Assembly: GCA_963705215.1 (NCBI GenBank)
Contig: CAVPJI010000010.1
Span: forward strand, 104,564 to 168,563
Origin: an uncultured Chloroflexia bacterium
GTDB taxonomy: Bacteria > Chloroflexota > Limnocylindria > Limnocylindrales > CSP1-4
Length of the DNA: 64,000 nucleotides
Direction: 5' to 3'
Positions 1,120-56,264 of the stretch are shown one piece after another. Position numbers and translations under genes: made by a program. The notes beneath the pieces are model-generated. The model was not told the origin of the DNA. It saw only the letters and a program-made list of their open reading frames with translations, and searched no databases. The number at the start of each line of letters is the position of its first letter. The first letter of the stretch is position 1.

Positions 1120-1345
1120 GCCGCGGACGCGCTTGCGTTGAACGCACAACCGCGCACCCCGCGGACCGGCCAGCGGTCTCGACGGCAGGATCCTTGCGTT
1201 GGACGGCGGCTTCCCTTCTCAGCCAGCTTTTCGACGAGGACCGCGACCCGCCGGATGACGGATCCATGCGTCTGACCCGCGAGAACCTGCAGACGACCAT
1301 CGATCAACCAGGGCGTGCTGCGCGGTTGTGCGTTGCACGCAAGGC
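1120..1345. repeat. Divergent copy of the dispersed repeat family (see 9107..9395). It carries the terminal palindromes TTGCGTTGAACGCA and TGCGTTGCACGCAA and the internal GGCAGGATCCTTGCG and CTGACCCGCGAGAACCTGC blocks.
   Basis: Direct comparison with the copies at 9107..9395 and 10250..10541. The ends and two internal blocks are conserved, the rest is diverged. It lies in the convergent yhdH/vapC intergenic region. Confidence 0.5.
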
Positions 1346-5914: not shown

Positions 5915-6891
5915 TGGCCGCGGTCCGGCGCATCGAACCCCGCGACCCACCCCGGCCCGGGGAGCCGTTCCTCGAGGTCCGGGGTCTTGAGGTCGTGCGC
6001 GCGCAGCGGCGCATCCTCGCCGTCGACGAGCTCACGATCCGGGCGGGCGAGACGCTCGCGATCGTCGGTCCCAACGGCGCCGGCAAGAGCACGCTGCTCC
6101 TTGCTCTGGCCGGCCTCCTGCGCCCGGATCGGGGCTCGATCGTCGTCGAGGGCGTGCCCGTGGTCCCCGACCGGGACCTGACCTACCGACGACGGATCGG
6201 GCTGGTGCTGCCCGCGCCGCTGCTGCTGTCGACGTCGGTCTACGGGAACGTCGCCGCTGGCCTGCGCTTCCGGGGCGTCGACGCAGCGGAGACCCACGAG
6301 CGGGTCGAACACTGGCTGGAGCGGCTGGCGATCTCCCACCTGTGGGACCGTCCGGCCAGCCAGCTCTCGAGCGGCGAGGCGCAGCGGACGAGCCTCGCCC
6401 GCGCCCTGGTGCTGGATCCGGAGCTGCTCCTGCTGGACGAGCCGTTCGTGGCGCTCGACAGCAGGACGCGCGCGCAGCTCCTCGATGACTTCGAGCGGCT
6501 CCGGGCCGAGGCCCCGACGACGCTGGTGCTCGTGACGCACCACCTGCACGAGGCCGTCCGGCTGGGCGACCGCCTGGCCGTCCTGCTCGACGGGCGCATC
6601 CGCCAGTGCGACGTCCCGGAGCGGGTGATGGGGTCGCCGGTCGACGCGGACGTGGCCGCGCTCGTGCAGACCGAAGCGCGGATCCGGGGGCACGTGGTCG
6701 CGTCGGAGGACGGGCTGGTGGTCGTGGACACGGGAGCCGGGTCGAGACGGGACGTGGAAGGCCGTGCCCGGCGCCTCCTGGACGCGACGCACGCGACCGG
6801 ACCTGCGGCACGCGACGGCGCCAGCGGGGCGCATGATGCGAGCAGCGGAGCGGACGTACGCGCCGCGGCGGGCGGCCCTGGAGGTTCGTGA
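5914..6891 (+). CDS. tupC: Tungstate ABC transporter ATP-binding protein TupC.
   Basis: Walker A GPNGAGKST, signature LSSGEAQR, Walker B LLLLDEP, H-loop. The real protein starts at MAAVRRIEP inside ORF 5362..6891. Its stop overlaps the AOR start. Confidence 0.8.
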   Translation: MAAVRRIEPRDPPRPGEPFLEVRGLEVVRAQRRILAVDELTIRAGETLAIVGPNGAGKSTLLLALAGLLRPDRGSIVVEGVPVVPDRDLTYRRRIGLVLPAPLLLSTSVYGNVAAGLRFRGVDAAETHERVEHWLERLAISHLWDRPASQLSSGEAQRTSLARALVLDPELLLLDEPFVALDSRTRAQLLDDFERLRAEAPTTLVLVTHHLHEAVRLGDRLAVLLDGRIRQCDVPERVMGSPVDADVAALVQTEARIRGHVVASEDGLVVVDTGAGSRRDVEGRARRLLDATHATGPAARDGASGAHDASSGADVRAAAGGPGGS

Positions 6892-9116
6892 TGGGGTACG
6901 GGAGCAACGGGACGATCCTGCGGGTCGACCTGACCCGCGGAACCACCGCCGTCGAGACCTTCGAGGAGTCCTTCTACCGGCGCTATCCCGGCGGGAAGGC
7001 GCTCGCTGCGTACCACCTCCTGCGCGAGATGCCGGCCGGGGCGGATCCCCTGGGTCCCGACAACGTCCTCGTGCTCGCGACCGGCCTCCTGACCGGCGCG
7101 CCCGTCTCCACGGCGACGCGCTTCAATGCCATCGCCCGGTCGCCCCTCACCGGCGCCTTCGGCGAATCGGAGGCCGGCGGCTACTGGGGCCCCGAGCTGA
7201 AGATGGCCGGGCTCGACGCGATCATCCTCACCGGGCGGTCACCGGAGCCCGTCTGGCTCTGGATCCGCGACGGCGTGGCCGAGATCCGCGACGCGCGGAC
7301 GCTCTGGGGCCAGGACCCGCCGACGGTGCAGGCCGCCATCAAGGCCGCAGTCGGCGAGAAGAGCGCGCGGGTGCTCCAGATCGGCCGCGCCGGCGAGAAC
7401 CTCGTCCCCTACGCGATGCTCATGAACGAGCTGCGCCACTACAACGGCCGCACCGGGATGGGCGCCGTCATGGGCTCCAAGAACGTGCGGGCGATCGCGG
7501 TGAAGGGCTCGCGAAGGTACCTCGAGCTGGCCCACGACCCGGGGGCCCTCGGGGCGATCGGCAAGCGCCTCGCGGGGGAGATCGCCGACCACCCCCAGGG
7601 CTGGGACCTGCGGACGAAGGGAACGCCGGGCCTGACCGACGGCCTCAACGCCGGCGGCATCCTGCCGACGCGCAACTTCCGGCTGGGGTCGTTCGAGCAG
7701 GTCGAAGGGATCGGCTGGGCGGCCTACGAGGCCATCCGCAGCGGCACCCGCACCTGCTACCTGTGCGCCGTCCGCTGCAAGCCGGAGACCGCGTTCTCCG
7801 GGCGCTACACGGTCACCGACACCTACGACGGGCCGGAGTACGAGGGGATCGCCGGCTTCGGCTCCAACTGCGCGATCTTCGACCTCCAGCTGGTGGCCAG
7901 GGCCAACGAGCTGTGCAACGAGCTGGGCCTCGACGTCATCTCGACCGCGGGCACCGTCGCCTTCGTCATGGAGTGCGTGGAGCACGGCCTCCTCGGGCCC
8001 GCGGACCTCGGGGGCGTGGACCTGCGGTTCGGCAACGGCGAGGCGCTTCTCGACACGATCCCGCTCATCGCCGAGCGCCAGGGGATCGGCGAGCTGCTGG
8101 CCCTCGGATCGCGGCGGATCGCCGAACAGGTCGGCGGCGAGGCGATCTCCTTCGCCATGCAGGTCAAGGGCCTCGAGATGGCGATGCACGAGCCGCGTGG
8201 CAAGGTCGGCGTGGCCCTCGGCTACGCCACCAACGAGGCCGGGGCGGACCATCTCGTCGGCTTCCACGACGGCGTCTTCGTCAACCCCAAATCGGTCTCG
8301 TTCAAGGGCGCCACGAAGATCGGGATCACCGAGCCGGCCGACGTCTTCGACCTCGGTGAGACGAAGGTCCGCAACTGGTACACCGCGGAGCGCTGGAACA
8401 GCGCCGAGAAGGTCCTGGGCCTCTGCTTCTTCGGCCCGGCCCCGCGCTCCTTCATCCAGGTCGACGACGTGGTGGGCGCCGTGCGTGCCGCGACCGGCTG
8501 GGATGTCACGGTGGACGAGCTCCTCGACGTGGGCGAGCGGGCGGTCAACCTGGCCCGGCTCTTCAACGTCCGGGAGGGCTTCTCGCGGGCCGACGACCGG
8601 CTGCCCGGCCGGCTCCACGAGCCGCTCGAAGGCGGGACGCTGACGGGGCGCTCGATCGACCGCGAGGCGTTCGAGGCGGCGGTCACCCGGCTCTTCGAGC
8701 TCAAGGGCTGGGATCCGGCGACCGGTGTGCCGACGCCGGAGCGGCTGCGCACCCTGGGCCTCGACTCGGCCGCGGACCGGGTGGCGCTCGGGGGTGCCGC
8801 GCCCGGGGGTGCCGCGCCCGGGGGTGCCGCGCATCGGGGGTGCCGCGCTCGGGGCGCCAGGCGGATCCGTCGAGGCCCTGTGAAGGTCCATCTCTGGGGC
8901 GAGCTCGGCTTCTACGGCCCCGAGCGGCGGAGCCGGTTCGAGGTCCGGCTCGACGCCGAGCTGCCCCTGCGCGAGGTCCTGCGCCTGATCGGGGTGCCAG
9001 AGGCCGAGGTCGCGGTTGTGGGGCTCAACGGCGAGGTGGTCCGGCTCGACGACCCGTCCCTCGTCGTCCGCGACGCGGACCGCCTCGACCTCTTCCCGGC
9101 GACGAGCGGAGGCTGA
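6888..9116 (+). CDS. aor: Tungsten-containing aldehyde:ferredoxin oxidoreductase (AOR family). It runs in frame through a Gly/Ala/Pro repeat linker into a C-terminal MoaD/ThiS-like beta-grasp domain ending in Gly-Gly.
   Basis: MMGYGSNGTILRVDLTRG…, CYLCAVRCKP (4Fe-4S Cys motif), and the full-length AOR fold through …GVPTPERLRTLGLD. There is no stop codon before the linker GGAAPGGAAPGGAAHRG and the 79-aa tail. Confidence 0.9.
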   Translation: MMGYGSNGTILRVDLTRGTTAVETFEESFYRRYPGGKALAAYHLLREMPAGADPLGPDNVLVLATGLLTGAPVSTATRFNAIARSPLTGAFGESEAGGYWGPELKMAGLDAIILTGRSPEPVWLWIRDGVAEIRDARTLWGQDPPTVQAAIKAAVGEKSARVLQIGRAGENLVPYAMLMNELRHYNGRTGMGAVMGSKNVRAIAVKGSRRYLELAHDPGALGAIGKRLAGEIADHPQGWDLRTKGTPGLTDGLNAGGILPTRNFRLGSFEQVEGIGWAAYEAIRSGTRTCYLCAVRCKPETAFSGRYTVTDTYDGPEYEGIAGFGSNCAIFDLQLVARANELCNELGLDVISTAGTVAFVMECVEHGLLGPADLGGVDLRFGNGEALLDTIPLIAERQGIGELLALGSRRIAEQVGGEAISFAMQVKGLEMAMHEPRGKVGVALGYATNEAGADHLVGFHDGVFVNPKSVSFKGATKIGITEPADVFDLGETKVRNWYTAERWNSAEKVLGLCFFGPAPRSFIQVDDVVGAVRAATGWDVTVDELLDVGERAVNLARLFNVREGFSRADDRLPGRLHEPLEGGTLTGRSIDREAFEAAVTRLFELKGWDPATGVPTPERLRTLGLDSAADRVALGGAAPGGAAPGGAAHRGCRARGARRIRRGPVKVHLWGELGFYGPERRSRFEVRLDAELPLREVLRLIGVPEAEVAVVGLNGEVVRLDDPSLVVRDADRLDLFPATSGG
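8791..8850 (+). repeat. About 4 tandem copies of a 15-bp unit (GGGGGTGCCGCGCCC) encoding the (GGAAP)n linker between the AOR and MoaD-like parts.
   Basis: Seen directly: gggggtgccgcgccc gggggtgccgcgccc gggggtgccgcgcat cgggggtgccgcgct. Confidence 0.8.
8880..9116 (+). other. MoaD/ThiS-like sulfur-carrier domain (VKVHLWGELG…LFPATSGG*). It has an in-frame GTG that could also act as an independent start.
   Basis: It is 79 aa and ends exactly in GG before the stop. The beta-grasp pattern (V..NGE.V…D.L…P..GG) is like MoaD/AorD. Confidence 0.6.
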
Positions 9117-9395
9117 CCGGGCGGAGCGTCGGCCAAAGCCGCCGACCCACCTTGCGCTGAACGCAACACCCCGCGGCCCGGCGGTCAGCTCACGTCCGCC
9201 CACGGGTCCCCACGGCAGGATCCTTGCCTTGGCCAACCGCTTTCCTGCCGTCGCCATCCTCAGGACCAGGCCGGGCTGTCCGGAGGGCAGCCTTCTTGCG
9301 CCTGACCTGCGAGAACCTGCTGGGCGAACGTGACCGCCTGCGCGGTGTTGCGTTGAACGCAACCCCGACCGGCGCGGGGGGGTGCCGGGCCAGAG
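9107..9395. repeat. Dispersed repeat copy A (about 290 bp), immediately after the AOR stop. The terminal palindromes are TTGCGCTGAACGCAA and GTTGCGTTGAACGCAAC, and there is an internal near-palindrome GGCAGGATCCTTGCC.
   Basis: Near-identical to 10250..10541 over about 290 bp in direct orientation. The ends are TTGCG-N5-CGCAA palindromes. Confidence 0.85.
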
Positions 9396-9488
9396 TCGGC
9401 GCCGGGCACGAGGCGGCGCCGCGGATCACGCTCGGACAGTCAACTCGCCGTTGAGTCGCATGTAAGTGACGCCACCCACAATGGCTGC

Positions 9489-10142
9489 GTGGCATCGATC
9501 GAGCGCCTCATGGACCGCGCCAACCAGCGCGCCGACGCGGCCATTCGCGGGGCGGGCCGGGAGATCCGCATTGCCCGCCGGGATCGGAACCTCAGCCTCG
9601 ACCGAGCCGGGGCGGCCGCAGGCATCTCCGCTGCGGCGACGAGCCGGATCGAACGCGGGCTCGCTCCGGAGGTGTCAGTCCTGAGGTTGACGCAGCTCGC
9701 CGAGGTTGTCGGCCTCGAGCTGTCTCTGCGCCTCTTCGCAGGCGGTTCCCCCATCCGCGACGAGGTCCACGCTTCACTCCTGGGGCGCTGTCGTGACGGA
9801 ATACACCCCAGCCTCCGATGGTCCATCGAGGTGCCGCTCCCGAACCTGGGTGATGACCGGGCATGGGACGCGATGGTGTCGGGTCCCGGCTGGCGGTACG
9901 GCGTCGAGGCGGAGACGGCTCCTCGCGACGTGCAGGCTCTATCCAGGCGCCTTGCGCTCAAGCTCCGCGACGGTGACGTGGATGGCATCATCCTCGTTCT
10001 TCCACGCACTCGACGGGTCCGCGAGTTCCTCGCCGCGAGCCGCGGAATGCTGGCCGAGGCGTTCCCGATCCCGGGAACAGTCGCTCTGGCTCGATTGAAG
10101 GACGGGCTCGACCCCGGCGGCAGCTCGATCATCCTTATCTGA
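9489..10142 (+). CDS. XRE-family helix-turn-helix transcriptional regulator with an uncharacterised C-terminal domain of about 140 aa.
   Basis: IRIARRDRNLSLDRAGAAAGISAAATSRIERG is an HTH_XRE motif. The C-terminal region (WRYGVEAETAPRD…DGIILVLPRTRR) matches no domain I can name. GTG start. Confidence 0.7.
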   Translation: MASIERLMDRANQRADAAIRGAGREIRIARRDRNLSLDRAGAAAGISAAATSRIERGLAPEVSVLRLTQLAEVVGLELSLRLFAGGSPIRDEVHASLLGRCRDGIHPSLRWSIEVPLPNLGDDRAWDAMVSGPGWRYGVEAETAPRDVQALSRRLALKLRDGDVDGIILVLPRTRRVREFLAASRGMLAEAFPIPGTVALARLKDGLDPGGSSIILI

Positions 10143-10249: not shown

Positions 10250-10541
10250 CGGAGGCTGACCGGGCGGAGCGTCCGCGGCACGTGGGCCAAGCCGCCGACC
10301 CACCTTGCGCTCAACGCAACACCCCGCGGCCCGGCGGTCAGCTCACATCCGCCCACGGGTCCCCACGGCAGGATCCTTGCCTTGGCCAACCGCTTTCCTG
10401 CCGTCGCCATCCTCAGGACCAGGCCGGGCTGTCCGGAGGGCAGCCTTCTTGCGCCTGACCTGCGAGAACCTGCTGGGCGAACGTGACCGCCTGCGCGGTG
10501 TTGCGTTGAACGCAACCCCGACCGGCGCGGGGGGTGCCGGG
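10250..10541. repeat. Dispersed repeat copy B, a direct repeat of copy A, between the XRE stop and the moeA 3' end.
   Basis: The same about 290-bp sequence as 9107..9395, with a few mismatches. Confidence 0.85.
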
Positions 10542-13742: not shown

Positions 13743-14612
13743 CTACCGGTCTGCGGTCGGCGGTGCGCCGTTCGGGGGGATCGGCTCGGTCGGGAACTCC
13801 GGCGCAGGGACCTCGTTCGGAGGGCGGGCCTCGTTCGGAGCCGAGGTTCCGTTGGGCGCCGGTGGCTGGTCGGGCGTTGCCGGAGAGTCGGGCGCCGCGG
13901 CGTCGGCGGGCGAGATCGGCGCCGTCGGCCCGGGTGCGTCGGTGAGGGGAGTCGGCTCCGTGGGCGCAGTCCTCGCACCGCGACGCCGCAGCGCGATCGC
14001 GGCCGCCACGAGCAGTCCGACGCCCACGAGGAGGAGTGCGAGGAGCGCGAGCCCTCCGTTCGACCCGTCGCCCGAGCCTTCGGCGGGCGGCGGCGACGGG
14101 ATTGGCGTGACGTCGACGGTCTGGGCCGGGGTTGGCGCCGGGCTGGGTGTGGGCGACGGGCTCGGCGAAGGCGAAGCCGTCGGCGACGGCGTGGCGGTCG
14201 GGCTCGCCGTCGGCACAGGCGTTGGCGTGGACGGGGTGGGCGAGGGACTCGCCGTCGGAACAGGCGTTGGCGTCGGTGTCGCTGTCGGCGCTGGCGTTGG
14301 GGTCGGCGTCGCCGTCGGCGCTGCGGTCGGCGCAGCCGTCGGCGTCGGTGTCCGCGTCGGCCTGGGCGTCCGGGCCGGGGTGGGCGCCGGGGTCGGCTCG
14401 ACCGTTGGCGCCGGCGTTGCCTCCGCCGTCGGCGCTGCGGTCGGCTCTGCCGTGGGCGCCGGCGTCGCAACCGGCGGAATCGAGACCGTGGGACGCGGCG
14501 GCAAGGACGGGAGGCCGCTGGGCAGCTCGATCCCGCCGCAGCCGGCGACAAGCGAGGCGAGTACGGCGACCAGCGCGACACCGCGGGCTCCCGCCAGGAT
14601 CCGGCTGCTCAT
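13743..14612 (-). CDS. Lipoprotein with a long Pro/Thr/Ala-rich linker, a C-terminal TM helix and a Pro-rich tail.
   Basis: [27 protein letters not shown] lipobox, about 150 aa of (PTPTPA)n, and [27 protein letters not shown]. The underlying DNA is low-complexity and repetitive. Confidence 0.5.
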
Positions 14613-40029: not shown

Positions 40030-40240
40030 TTGGCGCTGGGCGAGACACCTTGAGTTGAACGCACCACGGCGCCAACCGGACCAGCACACCGCAAGAAACG
40101 GCATGTCGAACGCGAGGAACCTGCACGGCGCGGCCAGCGGTGCCCGATTCCCGACGTCGAGCGCAACGAACCACCCGGCCCGCCGTCGGGGAGGGCCGGG
40201 CGTTGAGCTCAGCGCAAACGCGTCCGCGACCCAGGATCCC
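40030..40240. repeat. Degenerate fourth copy of the dispersed repeat (CCTTGAGTTGAACGCACC … GAGGAACCTGC … GGCGTTGAGCTCAGCGCAAACGCG) in the GDT1 upstream / marR downstream region.
   Basis: The terminal motifs and the internal block are in the same order as copies 1, A and B, but weaker. Confidence 0.3.
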
Positions 40241-55642: not shown

Positions 55643-56264
55643 TCAGTCCTTGCGGCGGATGGCCCGCTTGGCCTCGCTGATCAGGTTGCTGCGAGAGGCG
55701 GCACGCTGGATGTCGTGCTCCTTGGCGCGGGCAAGATCCCGCGCAAGGACCGGGTTCATCGTCCCGATCATGTGGCCCTCGACGTCGACCTCGCCGATGC
55801 CCTTGGCCTTCTTGACTCCCTCGGGCGCCTTGGCCTTCTTGACGTGGCCCTCGACGTCGTCCTCGACGGCCCTGCTCTTGATGACGCCGTCGGGGGCCTT
55901 CTGCTTGATAGACGTGGCCCTCGACGTCGTCCTCGACGGCCTTGCTCTTGATGACGCCGTCGGGGGCCTTCTGCTTGATCACGTGGCCTTCGACGTCGTC
56001 CTCGACGGCCTTGCTCTTGATGACGCCGTCGGGGGAGCTCTTCTTGTAGACGTGGCCCTCGACGTCGTCCTCGACGGCCTTGCTCTTGATGACGCCGTCG
56101 GGGGCCTTCTTCTTGATAGACGTGGCCTTCGACGTCGTCCTCGACGGCCTTGCTCTTGATGACGCCGTCGGGGGCGCTTCTTCTTGATAGACGTGGCCTT
56201 CGACGTCGTCCTCGACGGCCTTGCTCTTGATGACGCCGTCGGGGGCCCTCTGCTTGCTTGTCAT
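55643..56264 (-). pseudogene. Repeat protein with about 6 tandem 23-aa units (APDGVIKSKAVEDDVEGHVYK-K) and a conserved tail (…GHMIGTMNPVLARDLARAKEHDIQRAASRSNLISEAKRAIRRKD). The frame is broken because three of the DNA repeat units are 70-71 bp instead of 69.
   Basis: I translated the minus strand manually. The frame is lost after unit 1, restored after unit 2, and lost again after unit 5. The listed ORF 55494..56264 continues out of frame. The sensible C-terminus is in the +1 frame and ends at about 55643. Confidence 0.5.
55842..56261 (-). repeat. Tandem array of six 69-71 bp units (GACGTGGCC-CTCGACGTCGTCCTCGACGGCCTTGCTCTTGATGACGCCGTCGGGGGCCTTCT-GCTTGATA). The periods are 70, 69, 69, 70 and 71 bp.
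   Basis: Seen directly on the plus strand. The ACGTGGCC anchors are at about 55842, 55912, 55981, 56050, 56120 and 56191. Confidence 0.85.

Follow-up and report, generated by a model that had tools for sequence, protein, structure and literature searches.

A repeat family with four helically phased palindromic sites and a recurrent link to an XRE-type gene in high-GC, Chloroflexota-like genomes: a putative protein-docking scaffold

Multi-operator arrays are familiar from regulators of the XRE/Cro type, e.g., the four operators of HipB, the C-boxes of R-M controllers and the sites of ClgR, and all of these proteins bind palindromic operators. Integron attC sites, which are 57-141 bp long, are another described class of palindromic DNA. 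The repeat element that we describe here, from a stretch of 64 kb with a G+C content of 72-75% (the window), shares with the XRE/Cro arrays palindromic 5-N5-5 sites that would suit a helix-turn-helix (HTH) dimer, several of them apparently on one helix face, and a position upstream of what would be the regulator's own gene, whose HTH domain is closest in structure to those of ClgR, HipB and R-M controller proteins. Like bacterial MITEs (Correia, ERIC-type), it is small, non-coding and intergenic, has terminal inverted repeats of 22-25 nt and is present in some relatives and absent from others. It also recalls integron attC sites and their cassettes, being an imperfect palindrome with conserved ends and a variable inside that occurs in a site-gene-site arrangement around a small gene and as a solo site in a relative. 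REP palindromes measure 20-40 bp, and one of their ends is marked by the tag GTAG or CGTC (tag rule of PMC3733652). In form, the element joins multi-operator arrays with terminal inverted repeats, both of them known themes, and there is a modest chance that it represents a new type of mobile module.

The 15-bp palindrome TTGCGTTNAACGCAA (up to three mismatches) occurs exactly eight times in the window, at both ends of four copies and nowhere else, and the repeat family with terminal palindromes announced in the preliminary description is real. The 5′ palindrome pattern TTGCGYTGAACGCA, with two mismatches allowed, is found 14 times on the two strands of the window against 0.31 expected, and the block CTGACCYGCGAGAACCTGC is found three times against 0.06. 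Three copies are of a long form: c1 (1133-1342, + strand, 210 nt) stands alone between convergent ADH_zinc (yhdH-like) and PIN (vapC-like) genes, c2 (9152-9362, + strand, 211 nt) begins 35 nt after the stop codon of an AOR/ThiS frame and ends 126 nt upstream of an XRE-type gene, and c3 (10305-10515, + strand, 211 nt) lies downstream of this gene, convergent with moeA. The fourth, c4 (40050-40217, - strand, 168 nt), is a solo copy of a short form between a MarR gene (upstream) and a GDT1 gene (downstream), both on the minus strand. These gene contexts (yhdH/vapC, XRE/moeA, 5′ of XRE and 5′ of GDT1) had been given correctly, and the internal blocks said to be shared by all copies are indeed present in the order described in c1, c2 and c3. 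The claim does not extend to c4, a short copy on the opposite strand that has the terminal palindromes but not the internal blocks as described; a profile made from the long copies fails to detect it, and it aligns without gaps to the short copies of other genomes (169-170 nt) only when read on the minus strand. Similarly, the count of four elements in 64 kb stands, but the number of independent loci is three, since c2 and c3, which are 98-99% identical, represent one local duplication. A reading of the element as a small protein was rejected because the copies differ, in the stretches between conserved blocks, by 10-12-nt and 1-nt indels.

Pattern scans and look-ups of neighboring proteins located the family on at least six further contigs or loci (L002, L018, L021/L023, L026, L032 and L036/L038-L046). 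The long form is represented by L002 (solo, on a contig of 74% G+C binned as Anaerolineaceae), by L021 and L023 (directly after the end of the ThiS gene, with the XRE gene following in L023) and by L032 and L035 (ThiS/moeA context, upstream of the XRE-type gene), the last four being orthologous to c2. Short copies are found in L018 (solo, in a Chloroflexia MAG), in L026 (solo, at the ThiS/moeA site without the XRE gene) and in L036, L038-L045 and L046 (Dak1/methylmalonyl-CoA-mutase context, upstream of the XRE-type gene). A scan of a genome collection with GGCAGGATCCTTGCNTTGG gave 20 matches, among which L002 is real and L018 proved on inspection to be a real short copy, the rest being chance matches in unrelated taxa, and a metagenome scan gave four, two of them real (L021 and L023). 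Viral contigs yielded one chance DNA match and no relative of the 217-aa protein encoded by the XRE-type gene, plasmid and phage collections no match with blastn in distant mode, and a literature search for the palindrome strings no paper. Homologues of the AOR protein come from Chloroflexota according to their sources. Judging from these sequences, we regard the 170-210 bp repeats as a real and previously undescribed family, whose hosts appear to be high-GC Chloroflexota-like bacteria.

Comparison of insertion sites among relatives reveals differences in presence and absence. The element is present at the ThiS/moeA site of L026 and absent from the orthologous regions of L027, L028-L030 and L031, and L033 and L034 are likewise without it. 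Conversely, c1 is missing in L026, where the gap between the yhdH-like and PIN genes measures 52 nt against 563 nt in the window; here, some 500 nt including c1 (1060-1559) have no counterpart at the syntenic L026 locus, and about 290 nt of these remain beyond c1. In approximately 290 kb of related genomes, copies occur only at two orthologous sites, and given also that two of the window copies stem from one duplication, the "high density" of the preliminary description was overstated.

Each copy is built of four CTTGCGTTGAAC-like 12-mers, all in one orientation, an anatomy that the preliminary description had missed together with its helical phasing and the recurrent link to the XRE-type gene. 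The 12-mer is the core of a pseudo-palindromic site of the type TTGCG-N5-CGCAA, whose palindromic half-sites are one helical turn apart. The outer two sites are near-perfect 15-bp palindromes (5-7 of 7 positions symmetric in most), while the inner two are weaker and directly preceded by GGCAGGATC; the previously noted blocks GGCAGGATCCTTGC and CTGACCYGCGAGAACCTGC are parts of the two inner units, and ACGGCAGGATCCTTGCGT is, on direct reading, palindromic at 14 of 18 positions about GGATCC. Complementarity of the ends reaches further than the palindromes noted before, to about 22-25 nt: the palindromes continue for ca. 10 nt inward (TTGCGTTSAACGCA-ACACC-GCGC; (C)AACACC(S)GGC/GCGC), 15-23 of the outermost 25 positions are paired (mostly at least 19, over 12 copies) and the terminal helix has 22 pairs. 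The center base of the palindrome is free (G or C), and only 4 of 12 non-redundant copies have complementary center bases at their two ends, as would be expected of dimer sites and not of a stem.

In c1, the four sites lie at 1132-1143, 1193-1204, 1265-1276 and 1327-1338 (+ strand, spacings 61/72/62), in c2 at 9151-9162, 9223-9234, 9295-9306 and 9347-9358 (+ strand, spacings 72/72/52), and in c4 at 40207-40218, 40156-40167, 40105-40116 and 40054-40065 (- strand, spacings 51/51/51). Counted from the first site, the positions are about 0/51/102/154 in all six short copies, 0/72/144/196 in c2, c3, L032 and L035, 0/71/143/195 in L021 and L023, 0/61/133/195 in c1 and 0/62/135/197 in L002. Every spacing equals 5, 6 or 7 turns at 10.3 bp per turn (mean offset 0.42 bp, maximum 1.1 bp), the fit to integral turns being clearly poorer at 10.0 or 10.6 bp, and since all are whole numbers of turns, the four sites are predicted to share one face of the helix. 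The length changes between classes amount to 21, 21, 10-11 and 10 nt, at least four of them independent, and the third spacer gained its additional 10 nt on two occasions, with different sequences, a tandem duplication of 10 nt in L002 and an unrelated stretch in c1. If indel sizes were uniform between 1 and 30 nt, roughly one in six would lie no more than 1.1 bp away from a multiple of 10.3, and by our rough estimate four such phased changes would arise by chance in the order of 1 in 1000. In addition, the six short copies, which come from different loci and genomes, align with no more internal gaps than a few of a single base, although their mean column identity is only 72%. Kept length with diverged spacers, steps of 10-11 or 21 nt and whole-turn spacings point to the face-of-helix constraint of a protein-DNA complex, i.e., to a double-stranded scaffold that would be bound by protein.

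The best candidate for this protein is encoded directly downstream of the element. The XRE-type gene between c2 and c3 (9489-10142, + strand; a longer minus-strand ORF in the same interval is not the real gene) specifies 217 aa, with an N-terminal XRE/Cro-type HTH, covered by Pfam HTH_31/HTH_3 at residues 23-81 only, and a C-terminal domain without a match in any of the sequence libraries searched, the Pfam and NCBIfam models included. An AlphaFold2 model based on 41 homologues (mean pLDDT 90.7) shows the HTH followed by an alpha-beta-beta-beta-alpha-beta domain, which in this model has the PD-(D/E)xK, restriction-endonuclease-like fold. E114, D127, E140, D147 and Q149 are invariant in the 41 homologues, E142 and K158 nearly so, and this acidic pattern would be compatible with an active PD-(D/E)xK site. 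At E up to 1e-3, the C-terminal domain family comprises 757 clusters (50% identity), nearly all of which share the layout of around 217 aa. An exact look-up gave no match for the 217-aa sequence and a 2.3-kb contig for the 210-aa form (P0121). The small PD-(D/E)xK proteins XisH (the fdxN-element excision-controlling factor, PDB 2okf), AF1548, NucS and YaeQ are the closest known comparison, but they are only 7-12% identical to the protein, and no relation to them was found at the sequence level; XisH, moreover, lacks an HTH domain and is not known to have a site array like that of the element.

More than ten loci, in two unrelated contexts, have the element upstream of the XRE-type gene, i.e., the ThiS/moeA context (window, L023, L032 and L035) and, with the short form, the neighborhood of Dak2-Dak1 and methylmalonyl-CoA mutase (L036, L038-L045 and L046), where the homologues (P0136, P0137 and P0146) are 70-75% identical. 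The distance from element end to gene start is 125-230 nt overall (ca. 230 in L036 and ca. 170 in L046); in L038-L045, about 150 nt separate it from the inferred GTG start and 64 nt from the called one. Directly before the GTG start in the window lies a promoter-like block (9450-9488, + strand; GTTGAGTCGC-ATG-TAAGTG ... CACAAT), which recurs nowhere else in the window and whose pattern, GTTGAnnGC-N3-TAAGnG then CAnnAT, is kept in L023, L038 and L046; this suggests that the gene may have its own promoter and a leaderless mRNA. Close XRE-type homologues (P0122-P0135 and many more) come for the most part from contigs of only 0.9-2 kb, as would be expected if assemblies broke at repeats on either side or if the gene had several copies.

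The two arms of the c2/c3 duplication are approximately 9108-9381 (+ strand), where the AOR/ThiS frame ends with its last bases and stop codon and is followed by c2 and some 19 nt more, and 10252-10534 (+ strand), which holds a decayed copy of the ThiS 3′ end (ca. 25 nt) and c3. The same element-gene-element arrangement exists in L032, a relative at about 90% nucleotide identity, with two copies that are only 84% alike. Because this arrangement is shared, the duplication predates the split between the window lineage and L032, and we infer that c2 and c3 were later homogenized in the window lineage, most simply by gene conversion. As to the neighboring frame, aldehyde:ferredoxin oxidoreductase and the ThiS/MoaD-like protein form a single 742-aa ORF in the window (6888-9116), where the relatives encode 634-638 aa and 78 aa in two genes, separate or slightly overlapping, and the long ORF is either a true fusion or a frameshift or assembly difference.

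Our best explanation, to which we give a probability of roughly 45%, is that the element is the cognate four-site array of the 217-aa XRE-HTH/PD-(D/E)xK protein, whose binding is predicted from the adjacency of gene and sites. A dimeric HTH protein would occupy the four sites cooperatively, and the bound complex would draw the two ends together in a loop or a wrapped structure. At the gene-linked copies, the complex might control the XRE-type gene or mark it as a cassette, whereas the solo copies (c1, c4, L002, L018 and L026) would offer this protein additional places to dock and could be targets or remnants of recombination or roadblock or regulatory sites. The role of the complex could lie in the control of adjacent genes, in a roadblock at gene ends or in the promotion of recombination or cleavage.

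The comparison with XRE/Cro operator arrays also shows where this explanation is strained. The sites of the element are 51-72 bp apart rather than adjacent, they are bounded by long inverted repeats, and the linked protein has a nuclease-fold domain. Moreover, the element does not overlap the promoter-like block of the gene, which is unusual for an autoregulatory operator. Adjacency to the gene of the putative binder is seen in two unrelated contexts but not at the five independent solo loci, near which tblastn found neither an XRE gene nor a remnant; three of these loci lie between convergent genes, with no obvious operator target. If the pairing of protein and sites holds, it would provide a function and a DNA target for an uncharacterized protein family of 757 clusters and a new architecture of repeat elements, in which helical phasing rather than sequence is mainly conserved. 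It would also offer, in poorly studied high-GC Chloroflexota, a tractable case of how small HTH-nuclease genes spread or regulate.

The main rival to this docking scaffold is an ordinary, non-autonomous MITE mobilized in trans, in which a transposase from another part of the genome would bind the terminal and subterminal repeats and the XRE-type gene would be a mere neighbor or passenger; we hold this reading to be unlikely, though it survives better than any other alternative. Besides the terminal inverted repeats, the small size and the absence of coding capacity (the copies differ by indels whose lengths are not multiples of three), it would account for copies in unrelated contexts, for the preference for convergent intergenic regions and for the differences between close relatives at the ThiS/moeA site and at c1. 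The MITE/REP-like label of the preliminary description is apt for the form, with terminal inverted repeats and copies outside the window, but the transposase and the REP tag that it would bring along were not found. No transposase, integrase, RAYT, sigma-54 or enhancer-binding domain was detected in a Pfam scan of about 45 ORFs of the window, which are housekeeping genes (tungstate/molybdate-type ABC transport, AOR, moeA, HerA-like, leuA, ilvB, aconitase-type leuCD, ilvD, fabD/fabF, P-type ATPase, POR and others), and the called genes of the related loci (ca. 290 kb, without further copies) include no transposase or integrase. A RAYT (Y1 transposase) gene is missing from both the window and the related loci.

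Target-site duplications were not found either: direct repeats do not abut the ends of c1, c2, c4, L002 or L026 in a reading of the sequence, and the sole usable empty site differs by the extra ca. 500 nt and not by a clean 210. Unlike decaying MITEs, the solo copies have kept their exact length and phased sites despite heavy divergence. The four helically phased sites, the strictly kept length, the low copy density in the related DNA examined and the recurrent link, in two contexts, to an HTH/nuclease-fold gene outside the repeats all set the element apart from described MITEs. Even as only a MITE, it would constitute a new family, useful for annotation and able to explain assembly breaks.

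A bolder variant, which we think improbable, treats protein and element as the two parts of a cassette system, selfish or recombinogenic, of a kind not described before. Once assembled on the phased sites, the protein would bring the terminal repeats into synapsis and introduce nicks or cuts at them, which would drive the insertion of its own gene beside resident solo elements, in a homing-like or cassette-like fashion, as well as gene conversion between copies. The nuclease fold, the two contexts of gene plus element, the solo element at a site that is filled in relatives, the element-gene-element arrangement with later homogenization and the many 1-2-kb contigs with the XRE-type gene all lean this way, none of them decisively. 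If true, the 757 clusters would make this a widespread and unrecognized kind of mobile module.

The preliminary description had also offered a small-RNA or structured cis-regulatory module. As an RNA, the element would be transcribed together with the upstream gene or after it, would fold into a long hairpin that the terminal repeat closes and that contains internal stem-loops, and would act as a small RNA or as a 3′-UTR element, terminator or stabilizer. This reading is not supported and we consider it improbable, and a folded single strand in general, RNA or DNA, a minority possibility. Most copies do lie just 3′ of a gene, and single copies fold better than shuffles (z-scores -2.4 to -5.1), but they do so about equally on both strands, as any inverted repeat would. 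In the alignment of the short form, 84.7% of cells are paired versus 76.7% in shuffles (slid registers being far lower), and 19 pairs are doubly changed versus 9.7 in controls, with none of 500 shuffles reaching the observed value. However, the RNAalifold structure scored in this test was derived from the same six short sequences, and symmetric protein sites, like any inverted-repeat DNA, give rise to the same apparent compensatory changes, for which reasons we read the doubly changed pairs as conserved dyad symmetry and not as RNA.

The covariation term of RNAalifold is unfavorable in both alignments (+1.53 and +0.48). G.T and A.C mismatches across the terminal repeat are balanced (14 vs 11), without strand asymmetry, no intrinsic-terminator or sigma-70 consensus is present in or beside c1-c3, and an RNA would give no reason for lengths to change in quanta of 10-11 nt. 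Rfam 15 has no match at gathering score in the whole window, nothing relevant for c1 and c4 at relaxed thresholds (E up to 10), and no match for the elements in L002, L018, L026, L036 and L038, so the novelty of the family, which the preliminary description had made dependent on the absence of a described Rfam counterpart, is upheld on this side.

We find it distinctly improbable that the element recombines as a folded strand, in the manner of integron attC or IS200/REP sites, with the XRE gene between c2 and c3 as a cassette inserted by site-specific recombination. The site-gene-site arrangement with direct repeats, the solo element without the gene at the same place in L026, the stronger conservation of dyad symmetry than of sequence and a palindrome center, GTTSAAC, readable as RYYYAAC or GTTRRRY would all agree with attC. 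Yet RYYYAAC on the left and GTTRRRY on the right fit together only in c3/L035 and L026, the centers are often non-complementary, and with 168-212 nt the element exceeds the attC size range. There is no integrase in the window and no co-oriented cassette array, one gene being flanked and the other copies lying between housekeeping genes, and the duplication takes in about 25 nt of the ThiS gene end, which is more readily explained by homologous or illegitimate duplication than by site-specific exchange. For the REP type, the terminal palindromes, which start with TTGCG and end with CGCAA, have no GTAG or CGTC tag next to them, as the tag rule (PMC3733652) would require. Finally, that the internal blocks GGCAGGATCCTTGC and GGCAGCCTTCTTGC are sigma-54 (-24/-12) promoters served by enhancer-binding proteins at the terminal palindromes is very improbable, as the GG-N10-GC register with TTGC at -12, which by sequence reading recurs 72 nt apart in the long copies, is lost in several short ones (c4, the first unit of L018, and L036), and the window encodes no sigma-54 or enhancer-binding-protein domain.

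An apparent orientation bias of the element relative to the upstream gene was dropped, because co-orientation with the upstream gene in convergent regions is a matter of geometry, which leaves only c4 and the two gene-linked contexts informative. Just downstream of c4, the GDT1-family gene has at its 5′ end a weak, partial and sub-threshold match to the Mn2+ riboswitch (RF00080; 39929-39957, - strand; 17 bits versus a gathering score of 45, E 0.014), by which genes of this family are often controlled. In L018, a tRNA gene (6267-6339, + strand) lies ca. 170 nt from the short-form element. Short GC-rich tandem repeats (units of 15-20 nt, 3-9 copies) adjoin many copies of the element, mostly on the 3′ side (e.g., L002 2140-2190, L023 700-790, L036 9790-9960 and L038 5600-5740). 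Two further repeats were seen in the window, the first a GC-rich one with a periodicity of 12 nt (14124-14478; 21 overlapping registers, 62-80% identity), which probably encodes a low-complexity segment of a repeat protein, and the second a series of six tandem units of 69-71 nt (55783-56256), 79-94% alike, within ORFs that have no Pfam match.
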